DNA of 34,590 nucleotides from Chloroflexota bacterium (GTDB lineage: Bacteria > Chloroflexota > Dehalococcoidia > Lucifugimonadales > Lucifugimonadaceae): NCBI GenBank assembly GCA_002719295.1, contig PBHC01000004.1, positions 3,240 through 37,829 on the forward strand. Direction: 5' to 3'. The stretch's first letter is position 1; each line of letters opens with the position of its first letter. Of this stretch, positions 18,001 through 24,000 are shown piece after piece. Made by a program: the position numbers.

Positions 18001-21000
18001 CTTTGTAGATACAATTCAAGCTCATCAACCATTTGGTATTAATGATAAAACAGAAAAAAATTATATAGAAATAAGTGATGCAACAGTATCTCATGCTTTT
18101 TATGGAGAGTTTGTAAATAAAGATGAAGAAATGATACTTGATTTTAAATTAAAAGAAGGCGATACATTTGATTTCAGTTTATTAATACCAAATCTGGAAC
18201 CTGAAAATCTAAAAGACTCAAGTGAATTCCCTTACCTATTAATTAATGATGTTAAGTATTTACCTAATCAAACTTCAAATTTTTACGAACCCTACAGCAG
18301 AATGAATCTTATAAGAATAATATCTGAAAGACAAAATATAGAAAAAAATACAGATATAAATGTAAAAGTCATTTCTAGAGGAAATACAAGATATGTTTTT
18401 TCAATCGGATATAAAGAAATATTTAACAATACCTATGCATCAGGTAATGTTAGAAGGTTCAGCATGAATGATCTAAACGAATGGTATAACAGATTATATA
18501 CCCCTGATGCTATTGAAGAAAAAAATAATTTAACCTTTATATTAGCCATTTTAATTGGGTTTACTGTTTTTCTTAGTGCAGTATTTTATTATCGACAAGA
18601 CATATTAGAAAAATTTAATAACAATCATTGAAATCTAAATTTATCGGAAGTTTTGTTAACTATATAAACCAAAGACATCATAACTGGAACTTCAACTAAA
18701 ACACCTACAACAGTAGCCAGAGCAGCACCAGAGTTAATACCAAACATTCCTATAGCAACTGCTACAGCAAGTTCAAAAAAATTTGAAGTTCCAATTAAAC
18801 AAGCAGGAGCAGCTATCTTATGAGGGAGTTTTAAAATATAGGCTGAAAAATAAGCCAATAAAAATATTCCATAAGTTTGAATCAAGAGCGGAATTGCAAT
18901 TAATATTATAAGCAAAGGAGAATTTATGATTTTTTCCCCTTGGAATCCAAATAACAAAATTACAGTAAGTAGCAAACCTTGAACTATAAATGGTTTAAAT
19001 TTTTTATTAAATTTATTCAACCTTGAGATATTTTCTTGCAAAATAAATTTCCTTGTAAAAAAACCAAGAATCAAAGGTATTAAGACATAAAGTATAACTG
19101 AAATAAGTAGAGTGTCCCATGGAACTATAATCGAAGTCACTCCTAAATATAAAGCAGCGATAGGAGCAAATGCAAATATCATAATTATGTCATTTATAGA
19201 AACTTGCAATAATGTATAATTTGGATCTCCTTTAGTAAGAGAACTCCATACAAAAACCATTGCTGTACAAGGGGCAACTCCCAATAAAATCATACCTGCT
19301 ATATATTGCTTGGAATCATCCGGAGATATCAGGTTTACAAAAAATACTTCAAAAAATAGAATCCCAAGCATTGCCATAGTGAATGGTTTAACTACCCAAT
19401 TGATAATCAAGGTAAGTAATAGACCCTTAGGACTAGACTTAAAATCTAATATTTTTAAAAAATCTATATTTACCATCATAGGGAAAATCATTACCCATAT
19501 AAAAAAAGCGATAAGAAGATTTACTTTTTGATATTCCAAATCAGCAATAAAGTCAAAAAATCCTGGAATTATAAAACCCAATATAGTTCCAGATATGATG
19601 CTTAAAGCTATCCAAACTGATAAATATTTTTCAAAAATGCCCAATTATAATATGAAAGTTTATAAAATGATCTTAGACCAACAAATCATTTATATATTAG
19701 ACTAAAGTTAAATTTACTTATAGTACTTTTTATACAATTCTAAAATTGATACTTCATCAGTTTTTACCGATAAATCTTTACCAAGATTTTCATTTTGAAA
19801 ATTTTCTGCAAGAATTCTGTGCTGAACCTCTTCTTTATAACTGACTGAATTGAAAAAATTTTGACTAGCTTTAGCAATTAATGAAAACAATTTGTACCTT
19901 TCTTTTTTAGTATTTATTAAATGCTAAATCTGAAATGCCAACATATATATAGATAAATGTTAAATATTTGTTACGAAATTAGTAACATAAAGTCTTTTGT
20001 GTCTAATTGCGAATGACTAATTAGAGAATTTTTAGTATAAATCTCAAACGAATTGCGATCATTTTACTACTTAATATTTATAAATAAAAATATTTTACGG
20101 TATTCGTATCAATCTCCCAGCAGTGTTGACATTGTGACTCCAAGGGAGTCTGAGATTGATTTAAGCGAGCCTAGGGATACGTTTTGCTTTCCTTGCTCCA
20201 CTGCGCTTATAAATGTTCGAGCAAGTCCCGATTTCTTTGAAAGCTCGCTTTGGCTAAGATTTCTGTTTTTTCTTACCGTATGAATTTTATCTCCTAGTGA
20301 CAAAAGGACTGATTCTAAAGGCATCAAGGCGGGATTTGTTTCAACAAGAGAGTTTGCAACATATGTTGCTTTTAATGGATCGTCTGCAAAACCGTCAATA
20401 TACCTGTTGGTATCTTTTATCAATGATGCAGCGGGGCCTCCAATAATAACTTTAATATTTTTATTTAGTTCCTTAATGGATTGAATGGCCTCTTCAAGTT
20501 TATTGTTACTATTTGGAAAAGTAGATGATAAAAGAACAAAGTTAGGAACGGTTGTGTCTATATATTTTATTAAATCTGCATTTGGGATAGAGCTCCCTAA
20601 AAGCTCTACATTCCATCCGTCCCATCTAAAAAAATCTGCAGTCATATACAAACCAATCACATGAGTGTCATCCTCTATAGCCGACATAGATATTTTCATT
20701 CCATTTGGAGTAGGAAGCCTAAAATTGTTTCTAACCCTATCCATTAATAAGAGGCAAAATTGAGTCGCTCTATGCTCTTCAGTAATCAATATTTTCCCTT
20801 GATGCCATAAATTGCCTATATGGTTTAGAGAAACTCTAATCAAATCAAGGTAAATAACAGCAGGTGACCATTGCTGAGAAATCAACATTCGGGAAATTAA
20901 ATTAGCCTGATTATAATGACCATTAACCAAACTTGAAGTAAGCTGCTTAGAAACAGCCTGAATTTCAGTTTTAGGTGGCACGTACCAGTTTGAATTCATA

Positions 21001-24000
21001 TACCCTCATTTACTACTTACATGATTAGTATATCAGACAAATAATTATTTTTGCACAATATCTACATCTTTTATAAGAATATATAAGTATAAACAATTTA
21101 TAAAGGGGCAAGAAAATGTCAATGTTATTAAAAATGTGTCCTAACTGTAAGGGCGACTTAATGGATATGGTAGATCAAGATAATTTTAGTATCTATAAAT
21201 GTGCTCAATGTTCGAGAGAGTTTTCAAAAGAATTGTTTAATAAAAAAGGAAATCATTCCCATGAAAATAGCTTCCACAAAGTCTAAAGATTGCAAATTAT
21301 GCTCATTGCCAAAAGAAGAGCACATTTCAGATAAATCTTTTGGAGGAGTTTTAATTGGGTGTAAATTTGAAAATAATTTATTTAAAAATTATGTAAATAA
21401 TTTGAAAGAAGTTGTTAGTAAATGGATTTAGATAATAGAAAAATAATTGCCTTTGGAGCAAGTAGTGATATGGCTAAATCTTTTCTTGAAAATAAATCTA
21501 TTGCAAACAATGAAATTTATGCCATCAGCAGAAATGAAATCTCTGTAGGTCAAAACATTAATTTCGTTAATGTTAAAAATTACATGGATGTATCAGAGGT
21601 AATCAAAGATATAGAAATAGAAAACAGTGAAATCTCAGTTGTAAATTTTGCAGGATCTGTAAATTTAAAGCCTCTTCATCTAGCAAAAGATGAAGAGATG
21701 TATGAAGTACTTGAAATTAATTTAATGTCTAATTTTAGGATACTTACTAGTTTACTAAAAAATAATATGAAATCACTTAGCTATGTTTGCTTCTCCTCCG
21801 TAGCAGCAAATTATGGATTACCTAACCACGAACTCATTTCTGCTGCTAAATCCGGGGTAGAAGGCTTAATAAGATCTTGTGCAGCCACATATGGGTATAA
21901 AAATTATAGATTCAATTGCATAGCACCTGGTCTAATAGAAACAAAATTATCTAAAAGAATGATTTCAAATGACAAATCAAGAGAGATGGTTAAAAACATG
22001 TATCCTCTTAAAAAGATCGGAGCTCCAATAGACATTGAAGAATGTTTACTTTGGTTGCTTTCCAATAGTTCATCATTCGTTACAGGGCAAACAATCAGCA
22101 TAGACGGGGGATTAAACAATATAAATTCAAGGATTTTACAATAATGAAAGAATATATTACCAAAACACCTAACTTAGATTATTCATATGATAACAATGTT
22201 GAAAACTTTATTTCTATAAATATAGAAAATGAGAAATATAATAGGTTGCTTCAAGAATTGTTTCATTAATAAGTAATAATAATCTTAAAAAGCTTGAGTT
22301 GATTCAATAGGATATACAAGATTAGAATATAATAATTTCCATAATATTTTCTAAAATGGCCTACTACTCAGATCTATTTAACTTAAAAGAAGAAAAGTTT
22401 TTTAAAAATCTAGCGCTATCAAGTATATATATTTATACTATAAGATTTATTGATTTTGCTTTAATAACCTGGGTATTAACTAATATAGCTAAAAGCCCAT
22501 CAAGTATTGGATTCCTTGTTTTTGTCAAATTTGCTCCAATGGTTTTTTCAGGTTTTATTTCAGGATGGTTAGTTGATAAATTTGCAAGATTAACTCTTAT
22601 TCGAGCTGTTATTGTTCTTACCTCTATGTATCTTTTATTTTGGTCCATATATCTTTTTTTATTTGACCCAAGTTTAACTGTTATTTTTCTACTAACATTT
22701 ATATCAGGAATATTAATAAGCTTAGATATCTCATCAAGACAATCTTACTTGGCAAATTTAGTTGGTAGAAAAAACCTTAAGGCTGGTATAGCTCTAAATA
22801 TAATTTTATTAAATGCTGCATGGTTTATAGGTCCAAATATCGGAATGTTTTTTATGAACTTTATGAATCTAGATAAACTATATTTAGTTCTCGTATTTGT
22901 TAATAGTATAAATTTATTATTTTTATATAAAATGCCTAAGTTATCTATTTCAAGATCAGAAAAAAATAAATACTCAGGGATAAGCAAAGGAATAAATTTT
23001 GCTCTCTCTAATAAAATTATATTTTCTACCCTTCTGATAATCTCTGTAGGAAACTTAACAGCATTCACATTCGAGTCAATGACCCCTTATTTTGCAAGAT
23101 TTATTTATAATGCAACTCCTGAACAGTTTTCTCTTATGATTTCTCTACAAGGGCTAGGCGCATTAATTGGGTCAATAATTTTTTTCCCTTTATTAATAAG
23201 AATTACAAGACCTGGAATAATTTTTGCAATGTCAACAATTATGCTGTGTATTGGAAGTTTCATTTTTACGACAAATAACTCATTTTTATCTGGGTGTATT
23301 ACTGTAGCAATTTTAGGTGCAGGGACAACTTTTTTTATGAATATGCATTCTAGAATCCTATTATCTCAAACCCCTAACCCTCTAAGAGGCAGAATACAAG
23401 GCTTAGCTCAACTAGGGATAGGATTTTTTCCAATTGGAAGTTTATTAGTTGGTCTTTTAGGAGACAATATTGGTATTCTTAATAGTATGAGAATATTTTC
23501 ATACGTAGGGATAATTACTACTGCAATAATATTAATATTCTTCAAAGAATTAAAAAATAAATTATGATAAATAAAATAAAAAAAACTTTTTATATTAATA
23601 CTCTTATTATTGCTACTATATTTTTATTTTTCGGATGTAGCAACACATCAGATAAAGAAGATAAAACTATAGCCGCAACTCAAAACAATCAACTCAGAGC
23701 CTCCAATCAAATGCTGATGGAAGATAAAGACTATTCGAATATCTTTTGGATCAAGGGAACTGGTTCAGTTAAGCAAAAGCAAGATATTGTTGAGGTAAAC
23801 ATGGCTATTGAAAATAGAGATAAAGAAATAATAAATGCTACTAAAGTTGTTAATGAAAATATAAGTAAAATTATTAAGATTGCAGAAACTATTGGAATTG
23901 AAAAAGATCAAATAGTAACTTCAGAATATTCTATTACCCCTGTAACTAGATGGGTTGAAAAAGAAGATGAATATGGAAATTATGGAGAGAGTCAAATTAT

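Follow-up and report, generated by a model that had tools for sequence, protein, structure and literature searches.

A probable B12-based light sensor joined to a C-terminal XRE-type DNA-binding domain in a marine SAR202 bacterium

Cobalamin-based light control of transcription is known from CarH and LitR of Thermus thermophilus, Myxococcus xanthus and Bacillus megaterium, MerR-family AdoCbl repressors in which an N-terminal MerR winged helix is followed by a helical cap and a Rossmann module with the Wx9EH motif and an axial histidine. CarH operators are 11-bp direct repeats. CtMerR of Chloracidobacterium thermophilum (8JBS/8JBT) likewise has an N-terminal MerR domain, while the photocobilins (SasPcob 8J2W/8J2X, AbDPcob 8J2Y) contain a biliverdin-binding globin-like domain and, in some cases, enzyme outputs. 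AerR/PpaA, the B12-binding antirepressors of CrtJ/PpsR, are cobalamin-binding and light-linked too, but have no DNA-binding domain and act through partners. According to PMC11796333, both CtMerR and the photocobilins bind AdoCbl and are photoconverted by green light; the same paper defines the elements GxxW, EH, GxxH and GxxxP as the signature of light-responsive B12 domains.

Here, we analysed a window of 34,590 nucleotides (the whole stretch of DNA under study) from a SAR202 bacterium of the phylum Chloroflexota. It encodes a regulator in which a cap and Rossmann module of the same kind as in CarH/LitR is followed, not preceded, by a helix-turn-helix of another type:

20109..20999, minus strand: regulator gene, 296 aa (ORF with ATG start; Pfam; AF2 model)
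20742..20948, minus strand: four-helix-bundle cap, B12-binding_2, aa 18-86 (Pfam), bearing G62xxW65-H66 and E75-H76
20406..20693, minus strand: Rossmann B12-binding domain, aa 103-198 (Pfam), bearing D111-x-H113-x-x-G116 and G135xxxP139
20127..20282, minus strand: XRE / Cro-C1 type helix-turn-helix, HTH_3, aa 240-291 (Pfam and profile)

The 296-aa minus-strand ORF of the preliminary description was found again, and the same Pfam domains were recovered with the same bounds (B12-binding_2, E 1e-7; B12-binding, 1.4e-15; HTH_3, 3.4e-11), the C-terminus being matched by HTH_26/31/19 as well. An AlphaFold2 model computed from a 108-row alignment reached a pLDDT of 94.7 (87 in the earlier model) and a pTM of 0.80. 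All three domains are present in 108/108 aligned family members, and the wide spread proposed for the architecture is borne out by 112 related regulators in species genomes of several phyla, from which 80 loci were retained.

The regulator has G62xxW65, E75-H76, H113 and G135xxxP139 of the published signature, and the motifs read previously, W65-H66...E75-H76 (Wx9EH) and D111-x-H113-x-x-G116, are present in its translation. The statement that it carries every signature residue went too far, since Asp110 occupies the Gly position of the element GxxH, at which 85 of the 108 family members have Gly. Across the family, the light-sensing signature is conserved, both in the cap (G62 in 101, W65 in 97, E75 in 101 and H76 in 99 of the 108) and in the Rossmann domain (H113 in 105, G135 in 104, P139 in 103). 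H66, E109 and D111 had been taken as invariant; they are kept in 42, 50 and 46 of the 108, respectively, with Glu at position 111 in 52, and each of them varies even among the 13 rows of alignment A2. The sole other B12-binding-domain protein of the genome, encoded on contig C16 with a URO-D-type methyltransferase gene on one side and a RACo activator gene on the other, has GVKF...PEV in place of GxxW...EH.

Comparison of the family profile with known proteins gave the strongest matches to photocobilin 8j2x (E 1.3e-40), CtMerR 8jbs (6.3e-37) and photocobilin 8j2y (1.2e-34). Weaker matches were obtained for the corrinoid proteins 1y80 and MttC (about 1e-26 to 1e-25), CarH (2e-25, TtCarH scoring no better than the corrinoid proteins) and MetH (1e-22), and AerR 7te2 (2.4e-16) lay far behind photocobilins and CtMerR. 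By sequence profile, the B12 domain belongs with the photocobilin and CtMerR domains, whose light response has been demonstrated, and not with the corrinoid methyltransferase proteins. Photocobilins are the best matches of the module in sequence and fold, although the regulator lacks their globin-like domain and ends in a helix-turn-helix; CtMerR, among the closest solved B12 domains, shares GxxW, EH, GxxH and GxxxP, but has Arg at the position of H66 according to the accessible part of PMC11796333. Foldseek searches of the PDB with the regulator model returned photocobilin 8j2w (E 3.8e-13), the CtMerR B12 domain 8jbs (TMt 0.82), the CarH B12 domain 5c8a/8c31 (TMt 0.81) and full-length CarH 5c8d (TMt 0.62-0.73), with MetH 9cbo (rank 14) and MtmC 3ezx (rank 33) ranked below the photoreceptor domains. 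The priority of B12 photoreceptor domains noted before was thereby reproduced as a ranking, but fold alone does not separate photoreceptor from corrinoid-protein B12 domains because 3ezx reaches a TMt of 0.80.

One source labels members of the cluster 'methanogenic corrinoid protein MtbC1/DNA-binding XRE family transcriptional regulator'. Together with the strong profile matches of 1y80 and MttC, this name would suit a corrinoid methyl carrier of the MtbC/MtaC type with an incidental HTH, or else a decayed B12 domain that has lost the ability to bind cobalamin. We regard either as very improbable: unlike the genuine corrinoid protein on C16, the regulator is adjoined by no methyltransferase or RACo gene, a DNA-binding domain is found in every one of the 108 members, and a dead B12 domain is argued against by the conservation of the axial His in 105 of them. 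The C-terminal 60 residues are matched by XRE controllers and repressors (C.AhdI with 4e-20, and also C.BclI, SinR, DdrOC and a 434-type repressor), which differ in having no cobalamin module and in taking protein partners, proteolysis or concentration as their signals.

The regulator gene is transcribed away from a same-strand string of genes, and the following features lie between and within them:

21000..21115, no strand: 116-bp divergent intergenic region with presumed promoters and operator (sequence; 10 same-genus regions aligned)
21021..21039, minus strand: conserved block TGTCTGATATACTAATCAT (regulator sense; invariant columns of the same-genus alignment)
21116..21286, plus strand: zinc-ribbon protein, 56 aa, CxxC-x17-CxxC, first of the divergent string (Zn_ribbon_TFIIB 3.3e-5)
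21261..21431, plus strand: second small conserved ORF (C-K/R-L-C...EH...GC; same-genus conservation, no Pfam match)
21422..22144, plus strand: short-chain dehydrogenase/reductase (SDR), 240 aa (adh_short_C2 7.4e-37)
22356..23567, plus strand: MFS transporter, 403 aa (MFS_1 7.4e-22)
23564..24394, plus strand: SIMPL/DUF541 protein, 276 aa (SIMPL 2.1e-34), its start overlapping the MFS stop
24391..25050, plus strand: 219-aa protein without Pfam match, last of the string (ORF)

The divergent small CxxC ORF claimed previously is present in 9/9 same-genus loci with upstream sequence and in 7/8 near loci. Family-wide, 12/79 loci have a CxxC-x17-CxxC ORF on the divergent strand no more than 1.5 kb from the regulator, and such an ORF occurs once in 750,292 nt (six frames) elsewhere. 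The second small ORF, which starts at GTG 21201 or ATG 21261 and overlaps the SDR start with its 3' end, was detected by tblastn in 6/80 loci. RNA-library contigs 21268-22387 and 21166-22387 span the SDR gene into the start of the MFS gene, and the regulator and the divergent genes are both covered by contigs from the same samples. Positions 21010-21103 are spanned by no metatranscriptome contig from four RNA runs while both flanking genes are covered, a weak observation as it concerns contigs only.

Within the intergenic region, the block TGTCTGATATACTAATCAT combines an extended -10-like TGnTATACT with an overlapping imperfect inverted repeat, CTGWT-N6-AWCAn; it is unique in the genome, and its backwards control gave 0 matches. 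It also contains ATATnCTA, an element that, like the other intergenic motifs, was defined post hoc and is found in 24/76 regulator-upstream regions of the family, at 1.65 sites per kb upstream of family members versus 0.20 in other intergenic DNA. The block is a candidate for an autoregulatory operator or promoter, and the conserved intergenic blocks, resembling -10 elements, could also be plain promoters.

The adjoining SDR, MFS and SIMPL genes have no established light link, so that the weak point conceded in the preliminary description holds for the window, but not for relatives, whose neighbours include light-related genes. Within 6 kb of the regulator in the 80 loci, we found photolyase (7), NAD/DUF2867 (12), SRPBCC (18), YbgA/DUF1722 (5) and FolE (4) genes, in arrangements that vary by clade for photolyase and occur under Chloroflexota and Bdellovibrionales labels alike; in locus L016, additionally, photolyase lies directly downstream of the regulator. 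Cultured SAR202 strain Ca. Lucifugimonas marina JH545 has two regulator paralogs (loci L046 and L098, one record), and its 2/2 photolyase and 2/2 heliorhodopsin matches lie in same-strand strings divergent from them; growth of this strain is inhibited by light according to the accessible part of PMC10444878. In a sample of 41 relatives, in which kin are not independent, photolyase, type-1 rhodopsin or heliorhodopsin was encoded by 13/15 regulator-bearing genomes versus 3/26 without the regulator, and within the genus by 8/9 versus 1/4. Exceptions are the regulator-bearing genomes G004 and G027, which have none of the three families, and the 3 regulator-less genomes that have at least one of them. 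The genome studied here contains a rhodopsin gene, as stated earlier; a photolyase was looked for in this 81%-complete genome and none was found.

These neighbourhoods bear on whether the regulator is a ligand sensor working in the dark, with its B12 domain reporting corrinoid availability (holo versus apo) and light playing no physiological part. Such a sensor would fit the transporter and dehydrogenase of the window and the need of many marine bacteria for external B12; non-photoreceptor corrinoid proteins, too, have a B12-binding fold and the histidine of DxHxxG. Nevertheless, we consider it distinctly improbable. GxxW and EH are kept in 97-101 of the 108 members and missing from the genome's true corrinoid protein, the neighbours in relatives comprise photolyase, FolE, YbgA and heliorhodopsin, and photolyase and rhodopsins tend to be found in the same genomes as the regulator. 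Moreover, the recurrent neighbour clusters contained no genes for B12 transport, biosynthesis, uptake or salvage and none for B12-dependent/independent isozymes.

We favour, with fair though not strong confidence, a one-component, cobalamin-based light-responsive transcription factor. AdoCbl would be bound base-off/His-on via H113, and W65, E75 and H76 of the cap would pack against its 5'-deoxyadenosyl group in the manner of CarH, CtMerR and the photocobilins. Oligomers of the holo-protein, assembling in the dark, would place their C-terminal XRE domains on a site in the 116-bp intergenic region, repressing the zinc-ribbon, CxxC ORF, SDR, MFS, SIMPL and 219-aa protein genes and probably silencing the regulator's own promoter as well. 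On exposure to green or near-UV light, the Co-C bond would be cleaved; the oligomer would then come loose and bind DNA less tightly, so that the genes would be expressed. H66 is the counterpart of H132, the residue of CarH that gives rise to the bis-His photoproduct, a step that is not general to the family because H66 is kept in only 42 of the 108 members. For the AdoCbl light-dependent repressor proposed at the outset, the analysis establishes the domain architecture, the conserved signature residues, the kinship with B12 domains of proven light response, the light-related neighbourhoods and co-occurrence in relatives and the presence of an adenosyltransferase, whereas we infer its cofactor, photochemistry, oligomer change, repressor polarity, operator and regulon.

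An unlikely, yet less remote, alternative is a light response by another route than that of CarH, with hydroxo- or methylcobalamin as in AerR, with activation, or with a constitutive XRE dimer whose higher-order assembly or partner binding changes in light. A possible partner is the zinc-ribbon protein, whose gene is tightly linked in 12/79 loci. XRE domains usually self-dimerise and bind palindromes, in keeping with the matches to C.AhdI, SinR and the 434-type repressor, and H66 is not conserved family-wide. CtMerR and the photocobilins, without the bis-His histidine, may use a different photochemistry (PMC11796333, accessible part). Against this route stand the conserved adenosyl-contacting W/EH set and the PduO- or CobA-type adenosyltransferase encoded in 14/15 regulator-bearing genomes, the genome studied here having a PduO-type enzyme. 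These enzymes are common anyway (PduO in 34/41 relatives and 12/12 of the genus, with or without the regulator). The divergent placement of photoprotective genes is also what one would expect if, as with CarH/LitR, they were repressed in the dark and released by light, without proving it.

In relatives, the regulator diverges from or adjoins photoprotective genes, a feature in common with CarH/LitR, as is the presumed logic of repression in the dark and release in light; carotenoid genes are not among the neighbours. A general mention of signature-bearing B12 domains fused to HTH at the N- and C-terminal region appears in the 2024 SignatureFinder mining (PMC11796333, accessible part). An XRE/HTH_3 class is not named in that text, nor are members from SAR202 or Bdellovibrionota, and gene context is not given; the mined clusters may include the present family. 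These reported fusions weaken the words 'second class' in the claim of a second, independently assembled class, whereas independent fusion remains the simplest reading because domain order and HTH fold differ from CarH/LitR. The SAR202 regulator is probably a B12-based light sensor joined to a DNA-binding domain other than that of CarH.

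Pfam divides the 296-residue regulator into an N-terminal cobalamin-binding part and a C-terminal helix-turn-helix, with the following layout.

Regulator gene and its domains
20109–20999, minus strand: regulator ORF, ATG start, 296 codons
residues 18–86: B12-binding_2
residues 103–198: B12-binding
residues 240–291: HTH_3 (3.4e-11), with HTH_26 (5.9e-8), HTH_31 and HTH_19 over the same part

The succession of a helical cap (B12-binding_2) and a Rossmann B12-binding domain was also seen in an AlphaFold2 model based on the 108-row family alignment (pLDDT 94.7, pTM 0.80, weaker in the linker at ~221–230), which was used in place of a poor single-sequence model (pLDDT 50). 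In PDB sequence searches, residues 1–220 matched the photocobilins 8j2x/8j2w best (E ~1e-12) and also the B12 domains of CtMerR (8jbs, 2e-8) and CarH (5c8a, 5e-6), while the last 60 residues matched XRE proteins such as C.BclI, SinR and HipB. The latter part is a five-helix DNA-binding domain of the HTH_3 type, XRE (Cro/C1) family, and the family profile finds C.AhdI at 4e-20. Pfam gave no match to a MerR-type N-terminal winged helix, a feature of CarH/LitR, and the C-terminal HTH_3 is the sole DNA-binding domain of the regulator, which thus falls outside the CarH/LitR family. Photocobilins in turn fuse a globin-like biliverdin-binding domain to the B12 module; the regulator has no such domain, as it stops after the HTH at residue 296, and photocobilin alignments span just residues 13–214 of the family profile.

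According to the available portion of the 2024 signature-mining paper, light-responsive cobalamin domains are recognised by GxxW, EH, GxxH and GxxxP (PMC11796333). The translated regulator reads G62-N-L-W65-H66, E75-H76, E109-D110-D111-T112-H113-V-I-G116 and G135-S-S-I-P139. It hence contains the GxxW of the cap helix, the EH ten residues past the Trp (Wx9EH), the lower axial His (H113, with G116) and the GxxxP loop at the dimer interface; the only element missing is the Gly of GxxH, three residues ahead of the His, which is Asp110 here. This Gly is described in the same portion of that paper as touching the corrin via its main-chain carbonyl, and H132 of Thermus CarH, directly after the Trp, as making the bis-His photoproduct (PMC11796333). 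H66 of the regulator occupies the position of H132.

In a Foldseek search with the regulator model, the top matches were photocobilins and the domains of CtMerR (TMt 0.82) and CarH (TMt 0.81). Only a little lower come MetH and 3ezx, a methanogen corrinoid protein (TMt 0.80), so the fold alone cannot settle the kind of B12 domain. The family profile does separate these groups.

PDB matches of the family profile to B12 proteins (E values)
photocobilin 8j2x: 1.3e-40
CtMerR 8jbs: 6.3e-37
photocobilin 8j2y: 1.2e-34
corrinoid proteins 1y80 and MttC: 3e-26 and 1e-25
CarH 5c8a: 2e-25
MetH: about 1e-22
AerR 7te2: 2e-16

The regulator module therefore groups with domains which, in the available text of PMC11796333, are reported to bind AdoCbl and to photoconvert, and judged by its sequence it would belong to the photocobilin/CtMerR kind. 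The preliminary description had called the module ‘CarH-type’. A B12 photoreceptor module is retained from that assignment, but ‘photocobilin/CtMerR-type’ is the better name given profile matches of 1e-40 to 1e-34 versus 2e-25 for CarH.

Corrinoid proteins being strong profile matches, a corrinoid carrier is an alternative reading, as is a dead domain. Carriers of the MtaC/MtbC/MttC type come with a cognate methyltransferase, often with RACo, and their cap is devoid of Wx9EH; in the window, neither methyltransferase nor RACo genes neighbour the regulator, and its cap has Wx9EH. The only other B12-binding-domain protein of the same genome, encoded on contig C16, is flanked by a URO-D-type methyltransferase and a RACo activator. 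It carries GVKF...PEV at the site of GxxW...EH next to a canonical GDLHDIG, so the motif is not general among the B12 domains of this organism. Taken together with the residues conserved throughout the family (see below), we regard a carrier or dead domain as highly improbable. The C16 set itself (~31750–35490; L104:252–3987), composed of the methyltransferase, the 247-aa corrinoid protein P0180 (B12-binding_2 and B12-binding) and RACo, suggests methyl-group metabolism on a methylated amine or methoxy compound in this small SAR202 genome.

An exhaustive profile-free protein search yielded 8385 matches at E<=1e-3, 100 of them at E<=1e-30. From the best 150 representatives, each standing for one 50%-identity cluster, 107 with near-full-length coverage were chosen by eye and aligned with the window protein; the 43 left out were fragments, two-stretch matches or of shorter coverage, although three of them scanned afterwards (P0051, P0056 and P0160) likewise carry all three domains. 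B12-binding_2, B12-binding and HTH_3 were found in 108/108 aligned sequences, with the C-terminal HTH_3 as sole DNA-binding domain in every one, and the architecture is thus carried by at least 107 clusters at 50% identity.

Conservation of signature positions in the family alignment (column counts)
G62: 101/108
W65: 97/108
E75: 101/108
H76: 99/108
position 110: Gly in 85/108, Asp (as in the window protein) in 7/108
H113: 105/108
G135: 104/108
P139: 103/108

The core signature holds across the family. Invariance had previously been claimed for H66, E109 and D111 as well and fails in this larger set, in which the three residues are kept in only 42, 50 and 46 of 108 sequences, respectively (position 111 being Glu in 52). 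Relatives of other build were also encountered. In P0026 (176 aa, from a 725-nt contig), a match of 82% identity to the regulator's first third is followed by part of an adenylate/guanylate cyclase domain; either a genuine alternative fusion or a chimeric assembly may explain this. P0153, P0172 and P0030 are relatives of the B12 module (E ~1e-26 to 1e-9) with an N-terminal stretch of ~140 residues lacking a Pfam match and without HTH, possibly photoglobin-type partners.

Searching one-genome-per-species contigs with a 13-row alignment as query, we obtained 112 stretches encoding a regulator relative, of which 80 loci were kept.

Distribution of the 80 loci by record title
Chloroflexota-type (Chloroflexota, Dehalococcoidia, SAR202, Ca. 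Lucifugimonas): 42
Bdellovibrionota or Bdellovibrionales: 17
labelled delta-/Proteobacteria or Pseudomonadota: 11
Fimbriimonadales: 2
‘Thermotogae’: 2
Fraserbacteria, Bipolaricaulia and Ca. Uabimicrobium amorphum: 1 each
unlabelled: 3

Genomes related to that of the window have the gene in patchy fashion (15/41 overall, 8/12 in the genus); one of them (G010) carries the locus twice with identical scores.

In the window, the regulator is divergent from a string of genes, several of which have overlapping stop and start codons.

Genes divergent from the regulator
21116–21286, plus strand: zinc ribbon, 56 aa, first of the string, across 116 bp from the regulator
to 21431, plus strand: second small conserved CxxC ORF
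21422–22144, plus strand: SDR
22356–23567, plus strand: MFS transporter
23564–24394, plus strand: SIMPL/DUF541 protein
24391–25050, plus strand: unknown protein

Loci of the same genus keep the order SBF transporter, small ORF, regulator, zinc ribbon, CxxC ORF, SDR and MFS. The small ORF encodes 58 aa (MFSLIAKASQNFF...; window 19714–19890, minus strand) between the regulator and the SBF-family transporter (18625–19644) and has no Pfam match. In 12/79 loci, the regulator is accompanied by a small zinc ribbon whose CxxC-x17-CxxC spacing is fixed, and the pattern occurs elsewhere once in 750 kb read in six frames. Loci with the zinc ribbon upstream of the regulator (L022–L029, L032, L046, L050, L055 and L063) are all Chloroflexota-type by title or unlabelled; a protein-atlas look-up returned generic zinc-ribbon clusters and nothing more specific. 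Further afield, a tandem pair of paralogs of the enolase superfamily (MR_MLE), as has been described for SAR202, occupies 10903–13109 (plus strand) of the window, and a sulfur-handling group at 25047–29132 is composed of a SufS-like class-V aminotransferase, a Sulf_transp membrane protein and a double-rhodanese protein. At C11:4903–8556 and C17:29151–32804, the two rhodopsin loci of the genome show the same ORF set mirrored with identical scores and are probably one region assembled twice, not a true duplication. A photolyase was not found in this genome, which is 81% complete.

No known light gene is part of the window's divergent string, a weak point which the preliminary description had itself named. 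We clustered the neighbours of the 80 loci, scanned representatives with Pfam and counted them by tblastn within ~6 kb.

Neighbours of the regulator in 80 loci
DNA photolyase: 7/80
NAD-binding/DUF2867 protein: 12/80
SRPBCC/polyketide-cyclase-like: 18/80
DUF378: 15/80
YbgA-like DUF1722: 5/80
GTP cyclohydrolase I (FolE): 4/80
fasciclin: 18/80
divergent DnaJ-domain protein, Bdellovibrionota-type loci: 23/80
Methyltransf_9, Bdellovibrionota-type loci: 22/80
ApaG, Bdellovibrionota-type loci: 20/80

Photolyase, FolE, YbgA, SDR-like and SRPBCC proteins are typical members of bacterial light and photo-oxidative-stress regulons such as those of LitR and sigmaE-ChrR. A known light link is lacking for the window genes, but in relatives the regulator adjoins photolyase, FolE, YbgA and SRPBCC genes. 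An additional locus (L016) has a photolyase immediately downstream of the regulator. Placement of the photolyase varies by clade (divergent, directly downstream or 3–4 kb off), and as these placements occur under both Chloroflexota and Bdellovibrionales labels, the linkages do not represent one inherited block. The 23 Bdellovibrionota-type loci (within L043–L099) encode the divergent DnaJ-domain protein of ~345 aa, with a hydrophobic C-terminal half, and have the Methyltransf_9 gene and apaG downstream; targets of the regulator may differ there from those in SAR202.

Two of the 80 regulator loci (L046 and L098) are paralogs in the complete genome of the cultured SAR202 strain Ca. Lucifugimonas marina JH545, each divergent from a same-strand string that runs, at L046, DUF378, zinc ribbon, fasciclin, FolE, SRPBCC, photolyase and NAD/DUF2867. 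String genes lie ~50–500 bp apart and might therefore be covered by more than one transcript. Just past each string, on the same strand, follows one heliorhodopsin gene. The two heliorhodopsin and two photolyase matches in the entire JH545 genome are these four string-linked genes, a tight linkage which counts as one association because L046 and L098 are paralogous. Growth of JH545 has been reported to be inhibited by light, both heliorhodopsins were noted to lie one gene downstream of a photolyase, and heliorhodopsin was proposed as light sensor; B12, cobalamin or a photoreceptor are not mentioned in the available portion of that paper (PMC10444878). A third divergent promoter region of the regulator type is present in Ca. 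L. marina (L105, G041:C1:1997952–2000969, site 1501–1518). Its regulator frame, as read from the sequence, ends after ~26 codons next to IS transposase genes (HTH_Tnp_1, rve), with a DUF378-like stretch and an MMPL gene on the opposite side.

The genomes of 41 relatives were searched for the regulator and for three light gene families (photolyase, heliorhodopsin and type-1 rhodopsin). One or more of these families were present in 13/15 regulator-bearing genomes (exceptions G004 and G027) and in 3/26 regulator-less ones, namely G006 (55% complete), G017 and G026. Within the genus, light genes were found in 8/9 genomes with versus 1/4 without the regulator; the fairly complete genus members G002, G008 and G009 lack regulator, photolyase and rhodopsin alike. 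We give no P value since related genomes are not independent, but such a pattern would be expected if a light toolkit were gained or lost jointly. A B12 sensor acting independently of light would be at ease with the window's own string and its lack of known light genes; it would leave this co-occurrence and the photolyase contexts of the relatives unaccounted for, and we deem it quite unlikely.

On the side of the cofactor, a PduO-type adenosyltransferase is encoded in the window's genome, while CobA/BtuR and methylmalonyl-CoA mutase were not found in this 81% complete assembly. PduO occurs in 11/15 regulator-bearing genomes and CobA/BtuR in 3 of the remaining 4. As PduO does not track the regulator (34/41 relatives, 12/12 of the genus), cofactor supply indicates compatibility only: with adenosyltransferase genes present, AdoCbl binding with Co–C photolysis and a change in oligomeric state would be compatible with the gene content. 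A complex prediction for two full-length copies, run on alignment A1 without controls, scored 0.00 and 0.10, with the mark set at 0.42, and was counted neither way with regard to oligomerisation.

Ten intergenic regions of the same genus share the invariant block TGTCTG(A/T)TATA(C/G)T...CA, located in the window at 21021–21039, 22 nt ahead of the start codon. It can be read as an extended -10 (TGnTATACT) over an imperfect inverted repeat CTGWT-N6-AWCAn, whose arms covary (left T for A, right A for T; symmetry kept in 9/10 rows), probably through a single evolutionary event, which makes the support weak. Since the block occurs once in the genome, no regulon can be derived from it. No perfect palindrome was detected family-wide ahead of the regulators; among 5+5 inverted repeats, even the best are clade-specific and present in no more than 5/76 loci. 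Two short motifs are listed as candidates only, both being post hoc choices that overlap with -10-like hexamers: TGTT-N10-AACA (9/76 regulator-upstream regions) and ATATnCTA (24/76), the latter at 1.65 sites/kb compared with 0.20 in the other intergenic DNA of these loci (308 regions). In one SAR202 clade including the L. marina loci, TGTnGnGTAAAnTnnnCA is kept just ahead of the start codon. It has 3 matches in the Ca. L. marina genome (backwards control 0), which are the two regulator promoters and the truncated third paralogous locus; no further regulon member was found there with this motif. This element and the same-genus block, too, were chosen post hoc and overlap promoter-like hexamers, and both count as candidates only.

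A hint that regulator and divergent genes are both transcribed in the sea comes from metatranscriptomes (four runs, two studies) whose contigs match the region at >=95%, with the proviso that contigs are not reads and DNA carry-over is possible. One sample has separate contigs over the regulator (20061–20988 and 20230–21006) and the divergent genes (21114–21297, 21268–22387 and 21166–22387); contigs of the other study cover 21292–22332 and 21216–21896. No contig crosses 21010–21103, although in contig data a gap alone shows nothing.

We consider it probable that the regulator couples CarH-like logic to another type of DNA-binding domain. In the dark, the AdoCbl-loaded regulator would assemble, and the XRE domains of the assembly would sit on the divergent promoter region. 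Light would strip off the adenosyl group and loosen the assembly, after which photoprotective genes would be expressed. A light-responsive regulator with another corrinoid, polarity or partner is an alternative, to which we concede a small, though appreciable, chance.

A B12 module joined to a C-terminal XRE domain was not described in any paper retrieved by our literature search, and the combination is absent from the available portions of PMC10979010, PMC8717448, PMC3532121 and the preprint 10.1101/2025.08.13.669063. Fusions of signature-bearing domains to HTH domains, N-terminal as well as C-terminal, are mentioned in PMC11796333, as far as its text was available, and the XRE class may already be drawn in its cluster figures; the supplement text has no list. 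The present analysis contributes the conservation seen across the family, the gene neighbourhoods related to light, the co-occurrence with light genes and the connection with a SAR202 in culture that is sensitive to light.

B12 photoreception has so far been tested for MerR-type regulators (CarH/LitR, CtMerR), AerR-type partners and photocobilins. If the family works as read, a B12 module with C-terminal XRE domain would be a further wiring of the same chromophore to DNA, and the regulator, with 296 residues and a common, well-understood HTH, is a candidate green-light gene switch. A bolder reading, which we put forward as unlikely, gives the role of main light switch in SAR202 of the sunlit ocean and in freshwater Bdellovibrionota to this family and not to heliorhodopsin or MerR-type CarH. 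The family would silence genes for photolyase, folate antenna, lipid protection and heliorhodopsin in darkness and allow their expression in green light, with the zinc ribbon as dedicated Chloroflexota partner (anti-repressor or co-regulator). Because the chromophore is vitamin B12, its supply would then set light tolerance. If true, this might help to account for the as yet unexplained sensitivity of Ca. Lucifugimonas marina cultures to light, and zinc ribbon and regulator would form a two-part B12 photoswitch without described counterpart. The family occurs in SAR202, among the most abundant bacterial clades of the ocean, and in the one cultured member every photolyase and heliorhodopsin gene adjoins a regulator copy. 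With this linkage in a light-inhibited cultured strain, light sensing of SAR202 and the control of heliorhodopsin become open to concrete experiments.
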